Below, one piece after another: positions 39,559 to 46,272 of a stretch of 64,000 bases of DNA. Under the pieces are notes generated by a model. The model had not been told where the DNA came from, ran no database searches, and was given only the letters and a program-made list of their open reading frames with translations. Both the position numbers and the translations under genes were made by a program. The stretch is from Minisyncoccota bacterium (GTDB lineage: Bacteria; Patescibacteriota; Minisyncoccia; Phycocordibacterales; UBA2100), in contig JALHPE010000002.1 in assembly GCA_022842645.1 (NCBI GenBank), forward strand, positions 1,322 through 65,321, written 5' to 3'. The first letter of the stretch is position 1, and every line of letters starts with the position of its first letter.

Positions 39559-39929
39559 CACTATTCTCCTCGTTTGAGAGCAAAAATCCGCCCCGCAGGG
39601 CAGACTGCCAGCTTTATACCACAAAATGTGAAATACATCAGGTAAATGACGTCCGATTCCTCTTCAGTAGGCCTGAGCCAAGCTGTGGCCAATTTGGCGC
39701 CAAATGAGCCAGTCCTTGGCTCACGCCTGGGCGAAAAACGGCAAGTTTTCTCGCTGTGGGGAGGGGATAGTACACGATAATTATAGCTGAAAGCCAAACG
39801 GCAGGGGAAAGCCATTTGGCAAGTACATGCAGAGAATGCGTAGCTTCTTTAGGTGAGTGGTTTCTTTTTGCTTACTATCTTGCCCCCCGCCCTCTATGGC
39901 AACTTAAATTACACGGAAATCGAGATAGG

Positions 39930-42900
39930 TTAAGCCGCCATTTTCTCAATCCGTTCGTAAAATTCTTTAGAACGTTTATTGACAAGTCCATATTCTAAAA
40001 TGGCATGAGCAGTGTATTTCTGAACTTCTCTACCTTTGCGAGTTAGTTCATCATACACTTTTTCAAAAAGCTGCTTATTATCGGAATAGGTAATATTGGC
40101 TTCCTTTGCAATATTTAAGATACGCTCAACCACTGTTTTATTCTCCATTGAACGCATTAGAATATGATTAATAAGTATGTGACCAAGTCTTTCATACGAA
40201 GCTGCCGTCATTGGTAATTGTGAAATTAATGACAGTGCAGGAGCATAATGGTCTAAGCCCGAGAGGTTTTGATGTTCCAAATATTCAGTCATTGTGCTCG
40301 TAATCTCTTCCATTTCTGACTTGGTGAGATAACCCTGAATTTTGTACTTATACACTAACTCTGTCATCTGTCGTTGATGGTCAGTATTTGTACTCTCCAG
40401 ATTTTTGGTGATTACAGCAACGAGTACTTTTTTGAAGGCAGCTTCATTGAATTTAATCTTTGGCAGTGCAGTCATGAGAGTAATCTTCTCGGGGAAGTTT
40501 TCTCGTTGGGCACGACTTAGTGTGCAGTTAGCAACTAATTCAGGGTTTGTTACCTTCCTTAATTCAGTAAACTGTTCAAGTGCAGCGAGATAATGCGGTG
40601 CATTCTTGATAGTTCGGGCGAGGAAAGATTCTTTGTGTTGTGCGTCAAAATGCGAAGACAATGAGCGAAATACTTCATGATCTTGGAAGCTGCGCGATTC
40701 GAGAATTTCTCTTAAGTTGTCATAAGCAGGACCTGGTTTATTAAGAAAGTCCGTTGCCGACAAGACTTTTTCCAATGTAGATACGGGCGAGGAAGTCAGT
40801 ATCTCATTCGTGTACTGTTTGAGGGGCTCAATGTTGTCGTCATGGTGTTCTACTGCAAGACCTCTCAAAATGAGCAGGTTTGTCGTTACTGCCACTCGCG
40901 GTATCGGATTGTTGTTCTGGTCGTAATTCTGTCTAAGACGAGCTGTAAGTGCTGTAATTTGGTCGGCCGTGACTCTCGAATCAACCTTCTCGAGACTTTC
41001 TCGTATCGCGGTATTTACTATTTCCACTGCTCTGTCGTCGCCAATAGCCGGTTGCTGAGCAGCAAGCTCAGAAAGCTTGTGGAAAAGAGCATTGATAGAG
41101 TGCTCATTAAGAGTTGATTCAGCAGTCAGAACCAATCGTACTTTTCGGAGGAGGGGAGAAGTGGTGATGTCGAGAATGCTCAAATCTGAAGAAGTAATCG
41201 TTCGAACAATTCTCTCTAAGTGTTCATTACGAATATACGCTTTTCGAGCCTTTAGATTGGGTATGAAGATGTCAGCATTATCAAGGTCTTCGAGTAAGCT
41301 ATTTTCTCCTAAGATTGAAGAAATTTCTTCGATTTGCCCCTCGCTAAACAGTTCGGGGTTATCAGAAATCTTTTTGAGCAGTTGCTTCCTATATGTATCG
41401 TCATCTATGTTGACTCTAAAAGCTTCGGCGCGTGCAACACGCTCCAGGAGTGAGACGTATTTCTTTGCAAGCTGTAATCGGTTCGAACCGTTAACTCTGG
41501 GCATCAAGTAATCAAAAAGAACAGGCAATCTAAAGCCCTCAATGTAATGAGTAGATTCGGTTTCTGTTCCCAAGATATATGCCGCTATGCGGTTCAAGAA
41601 ACTGGACGAAAATCCAATATTTTGGACCGTATTATTACTGAAAAAGGTATTAATAATGTTGTAAACTCGTACAGCACTTGATTTAACATTTTCGATATTC
41701 TCAATAATAAATTGCTCTAAATATCTGGGACTGCCCGTTTCTGCTTTTCCAAGCATTTCGGTCACCTTATCGTCGTCACCATCCTGAAGTGCCTCTGTGA
41801 GTTTTTCTGCATTTGTGCTGATGCGTCGCGAGTCCTCAGATTGCTTAAGGAAAATAAAAGGTGAAATATTATTGGTCGTTATAAACTTCGTGCGCAGAAG
41901 GAATCTGTATAGAGAGTCATCCCCTCGATGCTCGAAGCGTTTTCGCAGTTTATCGTCTTCAGGAATCTTATTTTCAACAATGTGCCTATCAACAACATTC
42001 CATAAACCCGGCTCTTGTTTCAGGTCATTGAAAAAATCAGGATAGCGTTGTTCAATGACCATGACTTTTGCAAGCATTTGGATATTTCGAGTTACTACGC
42101 CCCTTGGCTGTAGTATGTTGCCATCATTTTCTCGATGGTGAGCGAGCAAGAAAGAGGAGATAAGAGCATTAATAAATTGCTTAATTTTCCTAGGGTTAGG
42201 GTTATCACGATGAGAAGAAGATATAACCGCGAGCAAATCCGAGCGCGTTTGCTCGTCAGGCATGGGTAATTTGGTTTCAGCAATTAAGCCACCTGTAAAT
42301 CTGTCTAGGTCACCCGCCAATACAGGAGGGATGCGGACATATGTGTTGAAGAATTTTCGCAAAAATTCATCTGTGTACCGTTCTCCTATAGTTTCGGATT
42401 CCTTATTATTCGATTCTTTGTGATAGATATGCAACAAGTGTCTTTTAATCGCTTTCTCGTCGCACTGAATAAGAAAAGCAACACGCTCATATTCCAAGAA
42501 CGTCTTAACGGAAGAAAGCAGTTGTAAGATTTTCTCATCAGAAACTCTATCCAAGTTATCGATGATAATCACTACTTTTTCGAATCCTTGCTTTATTTTT
42601 GCATCAATAATCGATTCAAAGAGCTTTTCGAATTGCTCTGCAAATTCGATACGATGTTCAGTGACTGTTATCTCATGCACCTTCAGGACTCCTTTGGCTG
42701 CCGAGAAGAACCAATCTAGAACTTTGCTTAAAAATTCTTTTGCAAATACCACCGCAATCGCGGTGAAGGTACCGACACCGCCTAAGATTTGCAATATCCA
42801 TTTGTATACAGAATTGACAGTCAAATCAGCTGCGAAAAACATCGCAACTCCAACTGTTGCAATTGCAATTGGTACCAGTAACCTAACCCAGCTGTTCTTA

Positions 42901-43328
42901 TCGGGAGAAAGAGAATTCTGCTGTTCGATGTGGGAGGAAGACTCATATATTTTTTTCAGCTTCTCCAGTCCAGTATTTAGTCCGGTTTTATCATCCAAGA
43001 AAATCAAGAACTGACGGCGAAAGCTGTCTGATTCGTATTTCCAAATATCAAATTCGACAACTGCTGTTTTTGTGGGGTCAATGAATTCTGTGCGCAGTAA
43101 CCTACCGATACCGCTTTTTCCTGTTCCCCAGCTGCCAAAAAGCCCTACCGTAAATGGCCCTTCCTCATGCTTCCATTTTGCAAGTACGTCACCTAAGGTT
43201 CGGGCAACTGACCTGTGTTCAAGAGCGTCATTTGCGGGCTCACTTATCGGCCTATCAGGTAAAAAAGATACGCTTTCAACACCGTCTTGGGGGTCGTTAC
43301 CGTTTTGGGAGTCGTTTTCGGAGGTCAT
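39930..43328 (-). CDS. KAP-family P-loop NTPase (1132 aa) with intra-domain TM hairpin and long helical C-terminal region
   Basis: Walker A LFGSWGTGKSGIG, DIWKYES, Walker B VVIIIDNLDR, and two TM helices (LLVPIAIATVGVAMFFA / ILGGVGTFTAIAVVFA) inserted between Walker A and B. AT-rich relative to flanks. Confidence 0.7.
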   Translation of the reverse strand: MTSENDSQNGNDPQDGVESVSFLPDRPISEPANDALEHRSVARTLGDVLAKWKHEEGPFTVGLFGSWGTGKSGIGRLLRTEFIDPTKTAVVEFDIWKYESDSFRRQFLIFLDDKTGLNTGLEKLKKIYESSSHIEQQNSLSPDKNSWVRLLVPIAIATVGVAMFFAADLTVNSVYKWILQILGGVGTFTAIAVVFAKEFLSKVLDWFFSAAKGVLKVHEITVTEHRIEFAEQFEKLFESIIDAKIKQGFEKVVIIIDNLDRVSDEKILQLLSSVKTFLEYERVAFLIQCDEKAIKRHLLHIYHKESNNKESETIGERYTDEFLRKFFNTYVRIPPVLAGDLDRFTGGLIAETKLPMPDEQTRSDLLAVISSSHRDNPNPRKIKQFINALISSFLLAHHRENDGNILQPRGVVTRNIQMLAKVMVIEQRYPDFFNDLKQEPGLWNVVDRHIVENKIPEDDKLRKRFEHRGDDSLYRFLLRTKFITTNNISPFIFLKQSEDSRRISTNAEKLTEALQDGDDDKVTEMLGKAETGSPRYLEQFIIENIENVKSSAVRVYNIINTFFSNNTVQNIGFSSSFLNRIAAYILGTETESTHYIEGFRLPVLFDYLMPRVNGSNRLQLAKKYVSLLERVARAEAFRVNIDDDTYRKQLLKKISDNPELFSEGQIEEISSILGENSLLEDLDNADIFIPNLKARKAYIRNEHLERIVRTITSSDLSILDITTSPLLRKVRLVLTAESTLNEHSINALFHKLSELAAQQPAIGDDRAVEIVNTAIRESLEKVDSRVTADQITALTARLRQNYDQNNNPIPRVAVTTNLLILRGLAVEHHDDNIEPLKQYTNEILTSSPVSTLEKVLSATDFLNKPGPAYDNLREILESRSFQDHEVFRSLSSHFDAQHKESFLARTIKNAPHYLAALEQFTELRKVTNPELVANCTLSRAQRENFPEKITLMTALPKIKFNEAAFKKVLVAVITKNLESTNTDHQRQMTELVYKYKIQGYLTKSEMEEITSTMTEYLEHQNLSGLDHYAPALSLISQLPMTAASYERLGHILINHILMRSMENKTVVERILNIAKEANITYSDNKQLFEKVYDELTRKGREVQKYTAHAILEYGLVNKRSKEFYERIEKMAA

Positions 43329-43511
43329 GTTGATTAATTCATGAAATCATTCGTTAAACCACTTGGTTTGTCAATTAAGGAAACGAAGCGCTTTTCGAGC
43401 GGTTATGAAGCTATGGGTGGTAGTAGGGTCAGGTACCGCAAAGTAAATACATCATGTTGTAATGATATTCATATCGGAGAGCGCTGCTAGCAATCACATC
43501 AATCGCTTTAC

Positions 43512-43650
43512 TCCGCGGGTAGTCGGCGTCGCCGGAGGCGAACCAGGCGCCTCGTTTTGGATAGGTGCTCGCCACCGCTCGCGCGAATTCTTTGCGAGTA
43601 GACTCGCCACCCAATAGGACTCTCACCCAAGGGTTCGAGTCCAGCCCGCG
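43512..43650 (+). other. tRNA-derived remnant: 12-nt direct copy (43511-43522) and an approximately 23-nt diverged inverted copy (43628-43650) of the tRNA-Asn 3' end, bracketing a hairpin-rich 105-nt segment
   Basis: CTCCGCGGGTAG repeats the sequence at 43701-43712. GGTTCGAGTCCAGCCCGCGGAG mimics the T-arm + acceptor, but its T-stem cannot pair. Confidence 0.3.
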
Positions 43651-43700
43651 GAGGAGTTGCAACAGAAAACGCCCACAAGGGGCGTCTCTGTTTTGCAAAG

Positions 43701-44012
43701 CTCCGCGGGTAGGACTCGAACCTACAACCAACTCGTTACACTTTGTCCCGAAATTTCTTAAGGGGGTGGACTATATCATCATCCTTCGTTCTAAACGGAT
43801 CGGATGCGAGGTGCTTCGGGCGCTTTCGCGCTCTACTCCCTTACGGGATAGTCTCTGAACCTTCTCGTCAATTTTTACATTGACGAGCTCGGCTGCTGAT
43901 TACCCACCGATTAGGGTTTGGGCTTCCAGCAATTCTCCTCGTTTTTCTTCCCGCATTCCTACAGGAAGCTGCCTACTGACAGCGAGCTGCTCTACCATTG
44001 AGCTACCGCGGA
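43701..44012 (-). tRNA. tRNA-Asn(GUU) interrupted by a group I intron between positions 35 and 36 (exons 44012-43979 and 43738-43701)
   Basis: The spliced sequence has a full cloverleaf. U1:A72, G73, anticodon loop CUGUUAA and T-loop UUCGAGU all match bacterial tRNA-Asn. Confidence 0.7.
43739..43978 (-). ncRNA. Group I self-splicing intron (240 nt, no ORF)
   Basis: P/Q/R/S core elements occur in order: AATTGCTGGAAG, AATCAGCAGCC, GTTCAGAGACTA, GATATAGTCC. Exon 1 ends in U, which pairs with G in the P1 guide GGCAGC. The intron ends in G. Confidence 0.7.
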
Positions 44013-44076
44013 ATATACCGTTAATCGCTTAACGGCTGCGGGGCAGTATAGCTGAAAAGCCCAGGATTTCAAACGG

Positions 44077-44101
44077 AAAAACCCGCCTGTGGCGGGTTTT
44101 T
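44077..44101. terminator. Bidirectional rho-independent terminator
   Basis: AAAAACCCGCC-tgt-GGCGGGTTTTT. Confidence 0.55.
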
Positions 44102-44124
44102 GCGTCACTCTTGTGCGAGAGGTT

Positions 44125-46272
44125 CTACTGAAGCTCCGGCATTGGAATGTTCAAGCTTGCGCAGTGAACCATATTGATCCAACGCTGCGTAGTCTTGAAC
44201 ACATATCCTGTTGGAGTGTTTTCAGGAAGACCAAATGAGCTCCACGGCTTCAAGACTTCGTTTTTGTACTTGAGCTGGAACGCATTCACCGCATTCTCTG
44301 TTTCTTCTCCAAAGATACCGTTTACTTCAAGTGAGAGACCAAGCTCGCTATTCAAGAAGTTTTGCAATTTCTTTACTTCTTCAATATCGTTTGTGCGACC
44401 GATATGCATGTAGGTGGTGATAAGTGCAGAGCAGGTGTCATCTAAGGTAGCGACACCAAGTACATCGCCACCAATCGGATTTTCTTCAGAAGTATCTGAC
44501 TTGCTCTCACAGCCCGGATCGTTCATGTCGTAGAGACCATCGCCGTCGTCGTCGACGTTGTTGCCACAGGCTTTCTTAATTCCTTTCCCAGATGTTTTTG
44601 GGGTCTCGGTGACTTCTGGCTCAGAAGTTTCTTCCTCACCACCCTCGTTGCTTACGCAGTTCGGGAACGTTCCGCTCTGGCCTTCTGGGCACACTTCGGG
44701 CGTTGGTTCGGAGCAGTTTGGAGGCGTTCCAACCTGTCCCTCTGGGCATGTTTCTGGTTCGGGGGTTACGCAGTTAGGGAATACGCCAACCTGACCCTCA
44801 GGGCATGATATGACGACAGGGACGCATGCTGGTGGTACACCAACCGTTCCTTCTGGGCAGACTTCAGGAACCACGGGAACACACGCAGGAGGAACTCCCA
44901 CGGTGCCTTCTGGGCATGTTGGTGGAGGAGGGGTGACGCAATTAGGGGGCGTGCCGGTCTGTCCCTCTGGGCACACGCCGTTTGGTGTCGGGTCACATGG
45001 ATCACCCGTTCCATCGTTGTCGCTATCAAGCTGGTTGGTATTTGCGTGTGACGGACAGTTGTCGGAAGAATCAGGAATAGTGTCAGCGTCAGTGTCTATG
45101 ACTGGTGGTGGAACACATTGCTGCGTGCCAACGTTCCAGGTGTTTGGCGCCAAGCACTGTGCGTCGAGGCAAGGGCCAGCGACTTGCATGCCAGTCACAT
45201 TGGGGCATGCGTCGACTGGAGGTGGTGGCATGACGCATGAGCTGCTATTCCAGGTGCCGCCATCTTGTACGCAGGTGTCATTTGCACATGGTCCTGATGT
45301 TTGAGTACCAGGAACCTGTGGACACGCATCAGGTGTGGGGATGTTGACCTGGAACGAATACACTGAGTCTCCCGAGCTTTCTGCGCCGGGTGGTGTTTGG
45401 TGGTAGAGCTTCACCGTAATCGTGTAGATGCCAGCAGCTGCGTAGGTGATGGAATTACTCCATGTGCCCGTAAAGTTTTTCGGGCCGCCCGCAGGATCAA
45501 TGAAGTTCGTGGTGGAGGTGTTATCAATCACGCTGTTACCCCAGTTCACTTGCACATCATGTGCGCTCAACTGACCAACATAGGGCGTGCCTTCACCAGT
45601 TCCAGTGAGGGTAAGGGTGAGACCCGAAATTGAAACGGGTTGGTTTACAGTAACTGCATAGTTCGAGGAATCAGTAATAGTGATGCCATCGACACGGAAG
45701 TATTCGTCGGAGCTATTGGTATTTGCCTTAAAGCGAAGGCGAAATGTCGTGTTGTCGAGACTGTTCGGAAGGTTGAATGCATTTTGTGTTGTCCACGACG
45801 CATCATCGCGCATGTCGTGATTCTGAAGCTGGCTCCATCCGCTCGCATCAGTGCAGCTTCCCGATCCCGCTTTATATTCGACGATGCCATCATCGGCGTT
45901 ACTGCCAGCGTCGGAGTCGCCGCGCCAATAGTAGGAAAGCTTGAGGCCCTCGCGATTTGCAGCGTTAATTTCGCGACAGATCCACTCACCCTGTGCAATT
46001 TTTGCAAATGCACCGGCATCAGGACTTGCCGAATCATTGCCGCTTCCAGCAGCTTGCGCGAGCGTGCTCGAATCGCTGTCCGTTCCTTCCTCATCCCAGT
46101 TCGGGATATCGTTTATGGTTACGGTGCCGAAGCTCTCTAGCGGCAAGACGGTAATTGCATGTGCAATACCAGGAATAATAGGAGCGAGCGATGAGCCAGT
46201 TATCACGGTGATGATAAACAAACTCAACGCTTTATGCGCGAGAGAACCTCGCAGTTGTGTTGCGTATAACAT
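44125..46272 (-). CDS. Large secreted/cell-surface protein with thrombospondin type-3-like Ca-binding repeats, Cys-rich CPEGxVGxPPxCV repeats and C-terminal PG-binding-like domain
   Basis: Signal peptide. DTDADTIPDSSDNCPSHANTNQLDSDNDGTGDPCD. At least six repeats of the CPEG(T/Q)VG(V/T)PP(A/N)CV motif. C-terminal NGIFGEETENAVNAFQ. Confidence 0.5.
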   Translation of the reverse strand: MLYATQLRGSLAHKALSLFIITVITGSSLAPIIPGIAHAITVLPLESFGTVTINDIPNWDEEGTDSDSSTLAQAAGSGNDSASPDAGAFAKIAQGEWICREINAANREGLKLSYYWRGDSDAGSNADDGIVEYKAGSGSCTDASGWSQLQNHDMRDDASWTTQNAFNLPNSLDNTTFRLRFKANTNSSDEYFRVDGITITDSSNYAVTVNQPVSISGLTLTLTGTGEGTPYVGQLSAHDVQVNWGNSVIDNTSTTNFIDPAGGPKNFTGTWSNSITYAAAGIYTITVKLYHQTPPGAESSGDSVYSFQVNIPTPDACPQVPGTQTSGPCANDTCVQDGGTWNSSSCVMPPPPVDACPNVTGMQVAGPCLDAQCLAPNTWNVGTQQCVPPPVIDTDADTIPDSSDNCPSHANTNQLDSDNDGTGDPCDPTPNGVCPEGQTGTPPNCVTPPPPTCPEGTVGVPPACVPVVPEVCPEGTVGVPPACVPVVISCPEGQVGVFPNCVTPEPETCPEGQVGTPPNCSEPTPEVCPEGQSGTFPNCVSNEGGEEETSEPEVTETPKTSGKGIKKACGNNVDDDGDGLYDMNDPGCESKSDTSEENPIGGDVLGVATLDDTCSALITTYMHIGRTNDIEEVKKLQNFLNSELGLSLEVNGIFGEETENAVNAFQLKYKNEVLKPWSSFGLPENTPTGYVFKTTQRWINMVHCASLNIPMPELQ

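Follow-up and report, generated by a model that had tools for sequence, protein, structure and literature searches.

This locus raises a simple question: are the two tRNA-like segments that lie 240 nucleotides (nt) apart on the minus strand of contig JALHPE010000002.1 the two exons of one asparagine tRNA gene, and if so, what lies between them and where exactly is the anticodon cut? The DNA analysed is a 64-kb stretch of this contig, called the window here, and positions are numbered within it. Intron-blind ARAGORN and the Rfam tRNA model found one tRNA-Val and one tRNA-Pro in the window and missed the tRNA-Asn, because the gene is interrupted. Our answer, to which we give a probability of about 0.92, is that the locus is a predicted functional tRNA-Asn(GUU) gene, interrupted after U35 and before U36 by an IA-type group I ribozyme of 240 nt without a homing endonuclease gene.

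The exons were read on the minus strand as TCCGCGGTAGCTCAATGGTAGAGCAGCTCGCTGT (exon 1, 44012-43979) and TAACGAGTTGGTTGTAGGTTCGAGTCCTACCCGCGGAG (exon 2, 43738-43701). When they were joined, the 72-nt product was identified by ARAGORN as tRNA-Asn(gtt), with all stems paired and zero mismatches in the cloverleaf. The joined tRNA carries U1-A72, G73, a 7-nt anticodon loop CUGUUAA and the T arm GTAGG-TTCGAGT-CCTAC. The pair U1-A72 together with the discriminator G73 is typical of bacterial tRNA-Asn, as in E. coli tRNA-Asn. Both features are invariant in the 12-sequence alignment described below and are present in 108 of 108 parsed metagenomic relatives among the matches listed. An earlier, sequence-only reading of this DNA had proposed the same exons, the 240-nt gap and the T arm, and its positions proved exact to the base; the perfect cloverleaf that it described, with U1:A72, G73 and the CUGUUAA loop, was recovered by ARAGORN from the joined exons. 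CCA is not encoded after exon 2, where the bases are CTT. No second tRNA-Asn was found by ARAGORN within the window.

The sequence between the exons starts with CAGUAGGCAGC and finishes with AAAGUG, so that the terminal guanosine (omega G) proposed in the sequence-only reading is found at 43739. It matches the Rfam group I family RF00028 (Intron_gpI) from 43972 to 43747 on the minus strand over the full model (positions 1–253), with 61.2 bits and an E-value of 4.3e-13 in the 64-kb window, a match that chance would not produce. Rfam had been suggested earlier as a check of the group I assignment, and the score lies above the curated gathering score of 50 bits; the eight closest metagenomic relatives among the matches listed all pass it too. 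The four core strings that had been picked out by eye as P, Q, R and S correspond to the P4 5', P4 3'/P6 5', P7 5' and P7 3' strands of the Rfam consensus. No homing endonuclease gene is present in the intron. The longest overlapping open reading frame (ORF) on the sense strand has 32 amino acids (aa) and starts in exon 1, which agrees with the earlier description of an intron without ORF.

The 5' splice site is defined by P1. The guide GGCAGC occupies nt 6–11 of the intron, and its G at intron nt 7 (43972) pairs with U35 (43979), the last base of exon 1, as had been proposed. This U35:G wobble and the three adjacent pairs are invariant in 12 of 12 sequences. Further inside, P3 encloses P4, P5, P6/P6a, the P7 5' strand, P7.1 and P7.2 (43807..43941, minus strand). 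P7.1 and P7.2 sit between P7 and the 3' strand of P3, where 33 nt are inserted with respect to the Rfam model. Extra helices at this place define subgroup IA in the classification of Michel and Westhof. On the modelled fold, with P7.1/P7.2 placed there, the intron is thus of subgroup IA type. In the minimum free energy (MFE) structure of the complete precursor, P1, P2, P3, P4, P6a, P7.1, P7.2 and P8 are all present, and its z-score against shuffles is -4.4. All of the helices P1–P9, whose folding had been left as a check by the sequence-only reading, could be drawn, and P7.1/P7.2 were added to them.

The drawn structure was compared with published relatives. The window precursor was aligned by MAFFT with 11 endonuclease-free tRNA-Asn 35/36 precursors from Table S3 of PMC13011429, and it aligns end to end with all 11. 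Exon identity to these members is 69–94% (highest with the tRNA-Asn of Paceibacteria GCA_030583765.1). Intron identity over aligned columns is 46–71%, with Paceibacteria GCA_016699245.1 at the top and 62% for GCA_016700035.1, which has been spliced experimentally. With no structure supplied, RNAalifold predicted the four tRNA stems together with P1, P2, P3, P4, P5, P6/P6a, P8 and P9, and compensatory changes were found at 47 of the 67 predicted pairs. For the full drawn structure, which includes P7, P7.1 and P7.2, 86.5% of cells are paired versus 35–43% in slid controls (3' partners moved by 1–3 columns), and both sides change at 62 of 93 pairs. None of 500 shuffles reached any observed covariation measure.

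The support is distributed unevenly over the helices. P3 and P4 are each 96% paired across the family and both show compensatory changes, and P7.1 is 100% paired in those relatives having it. The P1 core and P7 are nearly invariant; 97% of the cells of P7 are paired, yet it hardly varies across the family, and covariation neither supports nor contradicts it. The poorly paired helices P5a, distal P6a, P7.2 and P8a are variable-length regions where the MAFFT alignment is unreliable.

Metagenomes were scanned with a pattern that combines the D-stem 3' strand and CTGT with the P1 guide GCAGC and the first part of P3/P4, and at least 120 loci were found. Among the loci listed, 108 parse into exon 1, intron and exon 2, and most others are cut by contig ends. 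The joined products of all 108 parsed loci listed are tRNA-Asn(gtt), which is partly by construction since CTGT and TAA were required. Their introns are 182–604 nt long (median 246), and CCA is encoded in 56 of these 108 listed relatives and not in the window gene. The closest metagenomic precursors among the matches listed are 73–75% identical to the window precursor. The family exon/P1 pattern gave zero matches in viral contigs (IMG/VR). Phage similarity of the intron core is limited to a weak local match (72% over 117 nt in Alteromonas phages) and a 45-nt match in Escherichia phage Av-05, and neither is informative about origin.

The position of the cut needs separate treatment, because the same gene and intron can be read in two ways. 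With slashes marking the splice sites, CUGU/CAG...AAAGUG/UAAC gives the anticodon GUU (Asn), while CU/GUCAG...AAAG/UGUAAC, 2 nt upstream at 33/34, gives UGU and a tRNA-Thr. When introns are allowed, ARAGORN itself returns tRNA-Thr(tgt) i(33,240), and the 33/34 boundary (CU/GU...AAAG/UG) likewise has U at -1 and G as the last intron base. The sequence-only reading had placed the junction at 35/36 by the rule of a U before and a G at the end of the intron; the position stands, but the rule alone does not select it, as the boundary 2 nt off obeys it too. What decides is the U-1:G wobble in P1 and the family comparison, which exclude the 2-nt shift. The -1 U of the 33/34 boundary pairs with A in P1 as a Watson-Crick pair, and the invariant U:G wobble belongs to U35. 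All 108 parsed relatives among the matches listed have G immediately before the 35/36-type 3' junction, although the parse did not require it, whereas the base before the rival boundary is G in only 65 of them and the omega G of that boundary is thus absent in 43. The tRNA body is also Asn-like, with U1-A72, G73 and 94% identity to a tRNA-Asn. Moreover, the sequenced spliced products of a homologue are joined at 35/36, and a Thr(UGU) call with the intron at 33/34 is documented as a mistake that ARAGORN and tFind make repeatedly (PMC13011429). A tRNA-Thr(UGU) with a 33/34 intron was therefore rejected on the P1 wobble, the omega G statistics and the identity of the tRNA body, and we consider it extremely improbable.

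It also has to be asked whether the gene still works. The locus could be a decaying or inactive copy that splices inefficiently, a pseudogene whose task is done by a second, intron-less tRNA-Asn. Several observations lean this way or count against our reading of the locus. The RF00028 score of 61.2 bits is lower than that of all eight closest relatives among the matches listed (61.9–92.4 bits). Two internal mismatches occur in P9 and one A-A mismatch in P3, in an intron whose catalytic competence is predicted from its structure. The tRNA inventory covers the 64-kb window, and an intron-less tRNA-Asn may be encoded elsewhere in the genome. Partial copies of the tRNA 3' end just downstream indicate that the locus was rearranged. 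For the neighbouring proteins, exact matches came solely from short Logan contigs (SRR28154519-30), and these contigs are broken inside exon 2. The Logan unitigs of SRR28154530 end or begin there with a 30-nt overlap (L001:12541-12570 and L008:1-30, window ~43703-43732), and the assembly graph therefore has a branch point at the tRNA 3' end, an indication of a second strain or locus in the same sample that shares the exon 2 30-mer but differs on both sides. On the other hand, all catalytic-core elements, the U:G wobble, the omega G, the GAAA loop of P9 and every tRNA stem are intact, the cloverleaf is free of mismatches, the flanking promoter-like and terminator-like signals are preserved, and no other tRNA-Asn lies in the window. 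Decay of the copy is accordingly given only a slim chance.

For the predicted functional tRNA-Asn(GUU) gene, the following course of events is proposed. The gene would be transcribed alone, from the sigma-70-like promoter to the intrinsic terminator, and the intron folds into P1–P9 with P7.1/P7.2, as the covariance-model match and the covariation show. In P1, exon GCUGU pairs with the guide GCAGC and places U35 in the U:G wobble. Exogenous guanosine would then attack after U35, as in the general group I mechanism and in the homologue in vitro. The terminal G (43739) would enter the P7 pocket, and the 3'-OH of U35 would attack after it. Ligation of ...CUGU to UAA... would restore the CUGUUAA loop, and the 72-nt product would read ...GCUCGCUGUUAACGAGU... 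Finally, RNase P, 3' trimming and a CCA-adding enzyme may complete the tRNA, the last being included because CCA is not encoded. Guanosine-dependent self-splicing of the window intron is inferred here by analogy with the intron of GCA_016700035.1 in vitro.

Introns of this kind are already known. Those at this position of tRNA-Asn were named 'Asn.4Ug' by Williams 2020 (bioRxiv 10.1101/2020.01.27.920355), and Nakagawa et al. (preprint 10.1101/2025.07.03.662931; mSystems 2026, PMC13011429) characterised the Patescibacteria tRNA-Asn(GUU) 35/36 introns and demonstrated their splicing experimentally. The homologue from GCA_016700035.1, which has the same junction context (CUGU/...GUG/UAAC), self-splices in vitro exactly at 35/36, and splicing is blocked in its omega G-to-C mutant. 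The published family comprises 184–894 nt introns (mean 257) that usually lack an endonuclease gene, with 15 tRNA-Asn cases from complete genomes; none of the Patescibacteria tRNA introns is of type IC, and a possible regulatory role of the introns has been raised (PMC13011429). The view of the sequence-only reading, that group I introns at tRNA-Asn 35/36 had not been described, is superseded by these two studies. The window intron is a fresh example of a class already described and experimentally validated in Patescibacteria.

It resembles this 35/36 family in host tRNA, insertion site, the guide GCAGC pairing with GCUGU, the U-1/omega G, the IA-type core with P7.1/P7.2, the size, the missing endonuclease gene and the ARAGORN Thr(UGU) miscall. 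It differs from the published members in sequence, the nearest published intron being ~71% identical. Judged by sequence identity, it is divergent from all relatives retrieved (at most ~71–75%), and the tables of PMC13011429, as far as they were available, do not list this exact sequence.

In contrast, the classical bacterial tRNA introns belong to subgroup IC3, lack P7.1/P7.2 and interrupt other host tRNAs at other positions; examples are tRNA-Leu(UAA) 34/35 of cyanobacteria and plastids, tRNA-fMet 33/34, tRNA-Arg(CCU) 36/37 and Azoarcus tRNA-Ile(CAU). Subgroup IA introns of phages and tmRNA genes, such as T4 td, do have P7.1/P7.2 between P7 and P3'. The R and S elements of the window intron (GUUCAGAGACUA and GAUAUAGUC) presumably resemble those of these IA introns. 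The genes that phage and tmRNA IA introns interrupt code for proteins or tmRNA, and endonuclease ORFs are frequent in these introns.

The features of the locus are collected in Table 1. The promoter candidate is the sole promoter-like site in 43400-44200 by consensus match, and its -10 hexamer ends 33 nt upstream of tRNA position 1. The terminator-like hairpin, which is followed by TTTCTGTT, is potentially bidirectional, as the same hairpin was reported on the plus strand by the scan. Taken together, the promoter-like and terminator-like signals fit a putative independently transcribed unit.

Table 1. Positions of the tRNA-Asn gene, its intron and associated features, in window numbering unless a locus is named
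Feature	Position	Strand	Description
Sigma-70-like promoter candidate	44045..44072	-	TTGAAA-16 nt-TATACT; 10/12 consensus matches
Small hairpin in predicted 5' leader	44018..44035	-	CCGTTAA-GCGA-TTAACGG; perfect 7 base pairs (bp), GCGA loop; between -10 hexamer and tRNA position 1
tRNA-Asn exon 1	43979..44012	-	acceptor 5' strand, D arm, anticodon stem 5' strand, loop C32 U33 G34 U35
Group I intron	43739..43978	-	240 nt, without ORF; Rfam RF00028, homology and covariation with published introns
P1	43968..43983	-	exon GCUGU and intron C with guide GGCAGC (43973-43968); loop AGUA
P2 hairpin	43948..43967	-	8 bp; both sides change across the family at all 8 pairs
P3	43941-43935 with 43813-43807	-	CGAGGAG / CACCUCG, one A-A mismatch
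P4	43931-43926 / 43899-43894	-	UGCUGG with UCAGCA
P5	43922-43903	-	
P6/P6a	43893-43859	-	
P7 (R and S elements)	43853-43849 with 43773-43769	-	GACUA with UAGUC; pseudoknot helix with P3
P7.1	43848-43837	-	UCCC-GUAA-GGGA; in MFE fold
P7.2	43831-43820	-	GCGC-GAAA-GCGC; in MFE fold
P8 hairpin	43780..43806	-	CAUCC...GGAUG; 91% paired; 4/5 pairs with both-side changes
P9 hairpin	43747..43764	-	GAAA loop invariant in 12/12; all 7 pairs covary in the family
tRNA-Asn exon 2	43701..43738	-	U36 A37 A38, anticodon stem 3' strand, variable loop, T arm, acceptor 3' strand, discriminator G73
Intrinsic-terminator-like hairpin	43661..43685	-	ACGCCC-CTTGT-GGGCGT; 15 nt past tRNA end
Repeat-bounded flanking segment	43511..43653	.	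outside the intron, ~145 nt, GC-rich; ~50 nt downstream of tRNA-Asn, past the terminator
KAP-family P-loop NTPase	39930-43328	-	1132 aa; Pfam E 1e-29; just downstream of tRNA-Asn and the repeat-bounded segment
Analogous segment	L013:5093-5346		
Analogous segment	L047:2027-2159		
Analogous segment	L125:378-510		
Analogous segment	L109:1501-1634		
Analogous segment	L061:777-932		
Analogous segment	L086:1-108		
Looser analogue	L091:5400-5529		
Looser analogue	L032:11410-11536		
Looser analogue	L101		

A second structure was found beyond the terminator-like hairpin. Positions 43632-43653 are an inverted copy of the last 22 nt of the tRNA (43701-43722) with 2 mismatches, and ~110 nt further on, 43511-43522 is an exact direct copy of its last 12 nt. 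The segment between the copies forms a 10-bp closing stem and several hairpins (z-score -3.2). It matches no tRNA, tmRNA or Rfam family according to ARAGORN and Rfam. A tRNA or tmRNA on either strand was considered for it and dismissed, as both searches came back empty and only 2 of 5 pairs of a T stem could be formed.

Similar arrangements occur beside related tRNA-Asn genes. The last 12 nt of exon 2 recur in direct orientation 156–188 nt downstream in 8 of the 99 related loci among the matches listed that have enough downstream sequence. Under looser criteria, 9–14 of 95 listed loci repeat the acceptor 3' strand in direct or the T-loop region in inverted orientation, although some inverted T-loop matches (L027, L063) look like chance. 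Overall, about 10% of the related loci among the matches listed have a segment of 127–156 nt after the terminator, with the inverted copy first and the direct copy (12–29 nt) last. The direct repeat reaches into the 3' flank in several loci, the distal copy in L032 and L125 carries a CCA that is absent from the tRNA gene, and L013 has two units in tandem. Repeats extending into the flank, a distal CCA and tandem units are traits left by site-specific integration into a tRNA gene.

In the subfamily of L013, L047, L061, L109, L125 and L086, an acceptor-like stem is followed by a hairpin whose sequence varies while its pairing is kept, and by a second stem whose 3' strand equals the tRNA T-stem and the 3' part of the T-loop; this subfamily with the compensatory hairpin matches no Rfam family. 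The subfamily with this hairpin also has a 17-bp stem with a 3' strand identical to the T-stem and acceptor 3' strand of the tRNA. A covariance model built from six similar elements recovers only its training sequences and one new copy cut short (L086), and it does not recognise the window segment (13.5 bits, E 0.65). Internally, the window segment gives no convincing alignment with L091, its nearest analogue. Membership of the window segment in a single conserved RNA family was rejected on this model score and the failed L091 alignment. The loci thus have their layout in common but not their sequence.

A search of viral contigs with the element motif GGATTCGAA...GAGCGNAGCGA gave 13 matches, none of which resembles the downstream element, and this was a false lead. 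Seven of the 13 are the antisense of ordinary tRNA-Met genes and six have no tRNA by ARAGORN. The tRNA-Met antisense matches lie on IMG/VR contigs L131, L132, L133, L137, L138, L141 and L142, and the motif is tRNA-like in reverse complement.

Two readings of the window segment were considered: it may be a remnant or miniature form of elements integrated at tRNA-Asn, or it may be a structured RNA that mimics the tRNA end. The broader proposal, of an undescribed class of small elements tied to Patescibacteria tRNA-Asn genes, either as miniature integrative elements with the tRNA 3' end for an attachment site or as structured RNA mimicking the acceptor/T arm, is tentative and in our judgement rather unlikely.

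The tRNA-Asn gene lies between genes for a 715-aa protein with a peptidoglycan-binding domain and the 1132-aa KAP-family P-loop NTPase, and the genes of peptide deformylase (def) and methionyl-tRNA formyltransferase (fmt) are a few kb off. The setting is that of a bacterial chromosome. The best GTDB relatives of the 715-aa protein, at 41–47% identity over the N-terminal part only, come from metagenome-assembled genomes of Candidatus Saccharibacteria and Candidatus Parcubacteria. From these weak relatives and the exon identity to Paceibacteria, both indirect indications, the host is probably a member of Patescibacteria. Neither a group I intron nor a tRNA reaches the threshold in the loci of the two protein relatives (L003, L004), and therefore no syntenic comparison was possible. 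The KAP NTPase gene could be the cargo of an island at tRNA-Asn; within the 64-kb window, the search for another copy of the tRNA 3' end that would mark a far island boundary gave none. Logan contigs with the KAP NTPase gene end ~236 nt beyond it, near window position 39694.

The window intron alone raises no fresh question. Its practical meaning lies in annotation, since standard tRNA finders miss the tRNA-Asn gene or miscall it as tRNA-Thr(UGU), and without intron-aware annotation the genome would seem to lack tRNA-Asn and would score as less complete (PMC13011429). With at least 120 metagenomic loci, the family is common in environmental sequences and is not confined to the 15 tRNA-Asn cases that complete genomes supplied (PMC13011429). 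This gene is a further divergent member of a family in which, in organisms with very small genomes, the anticodon of an essential tRNA depends on a ribozyme.

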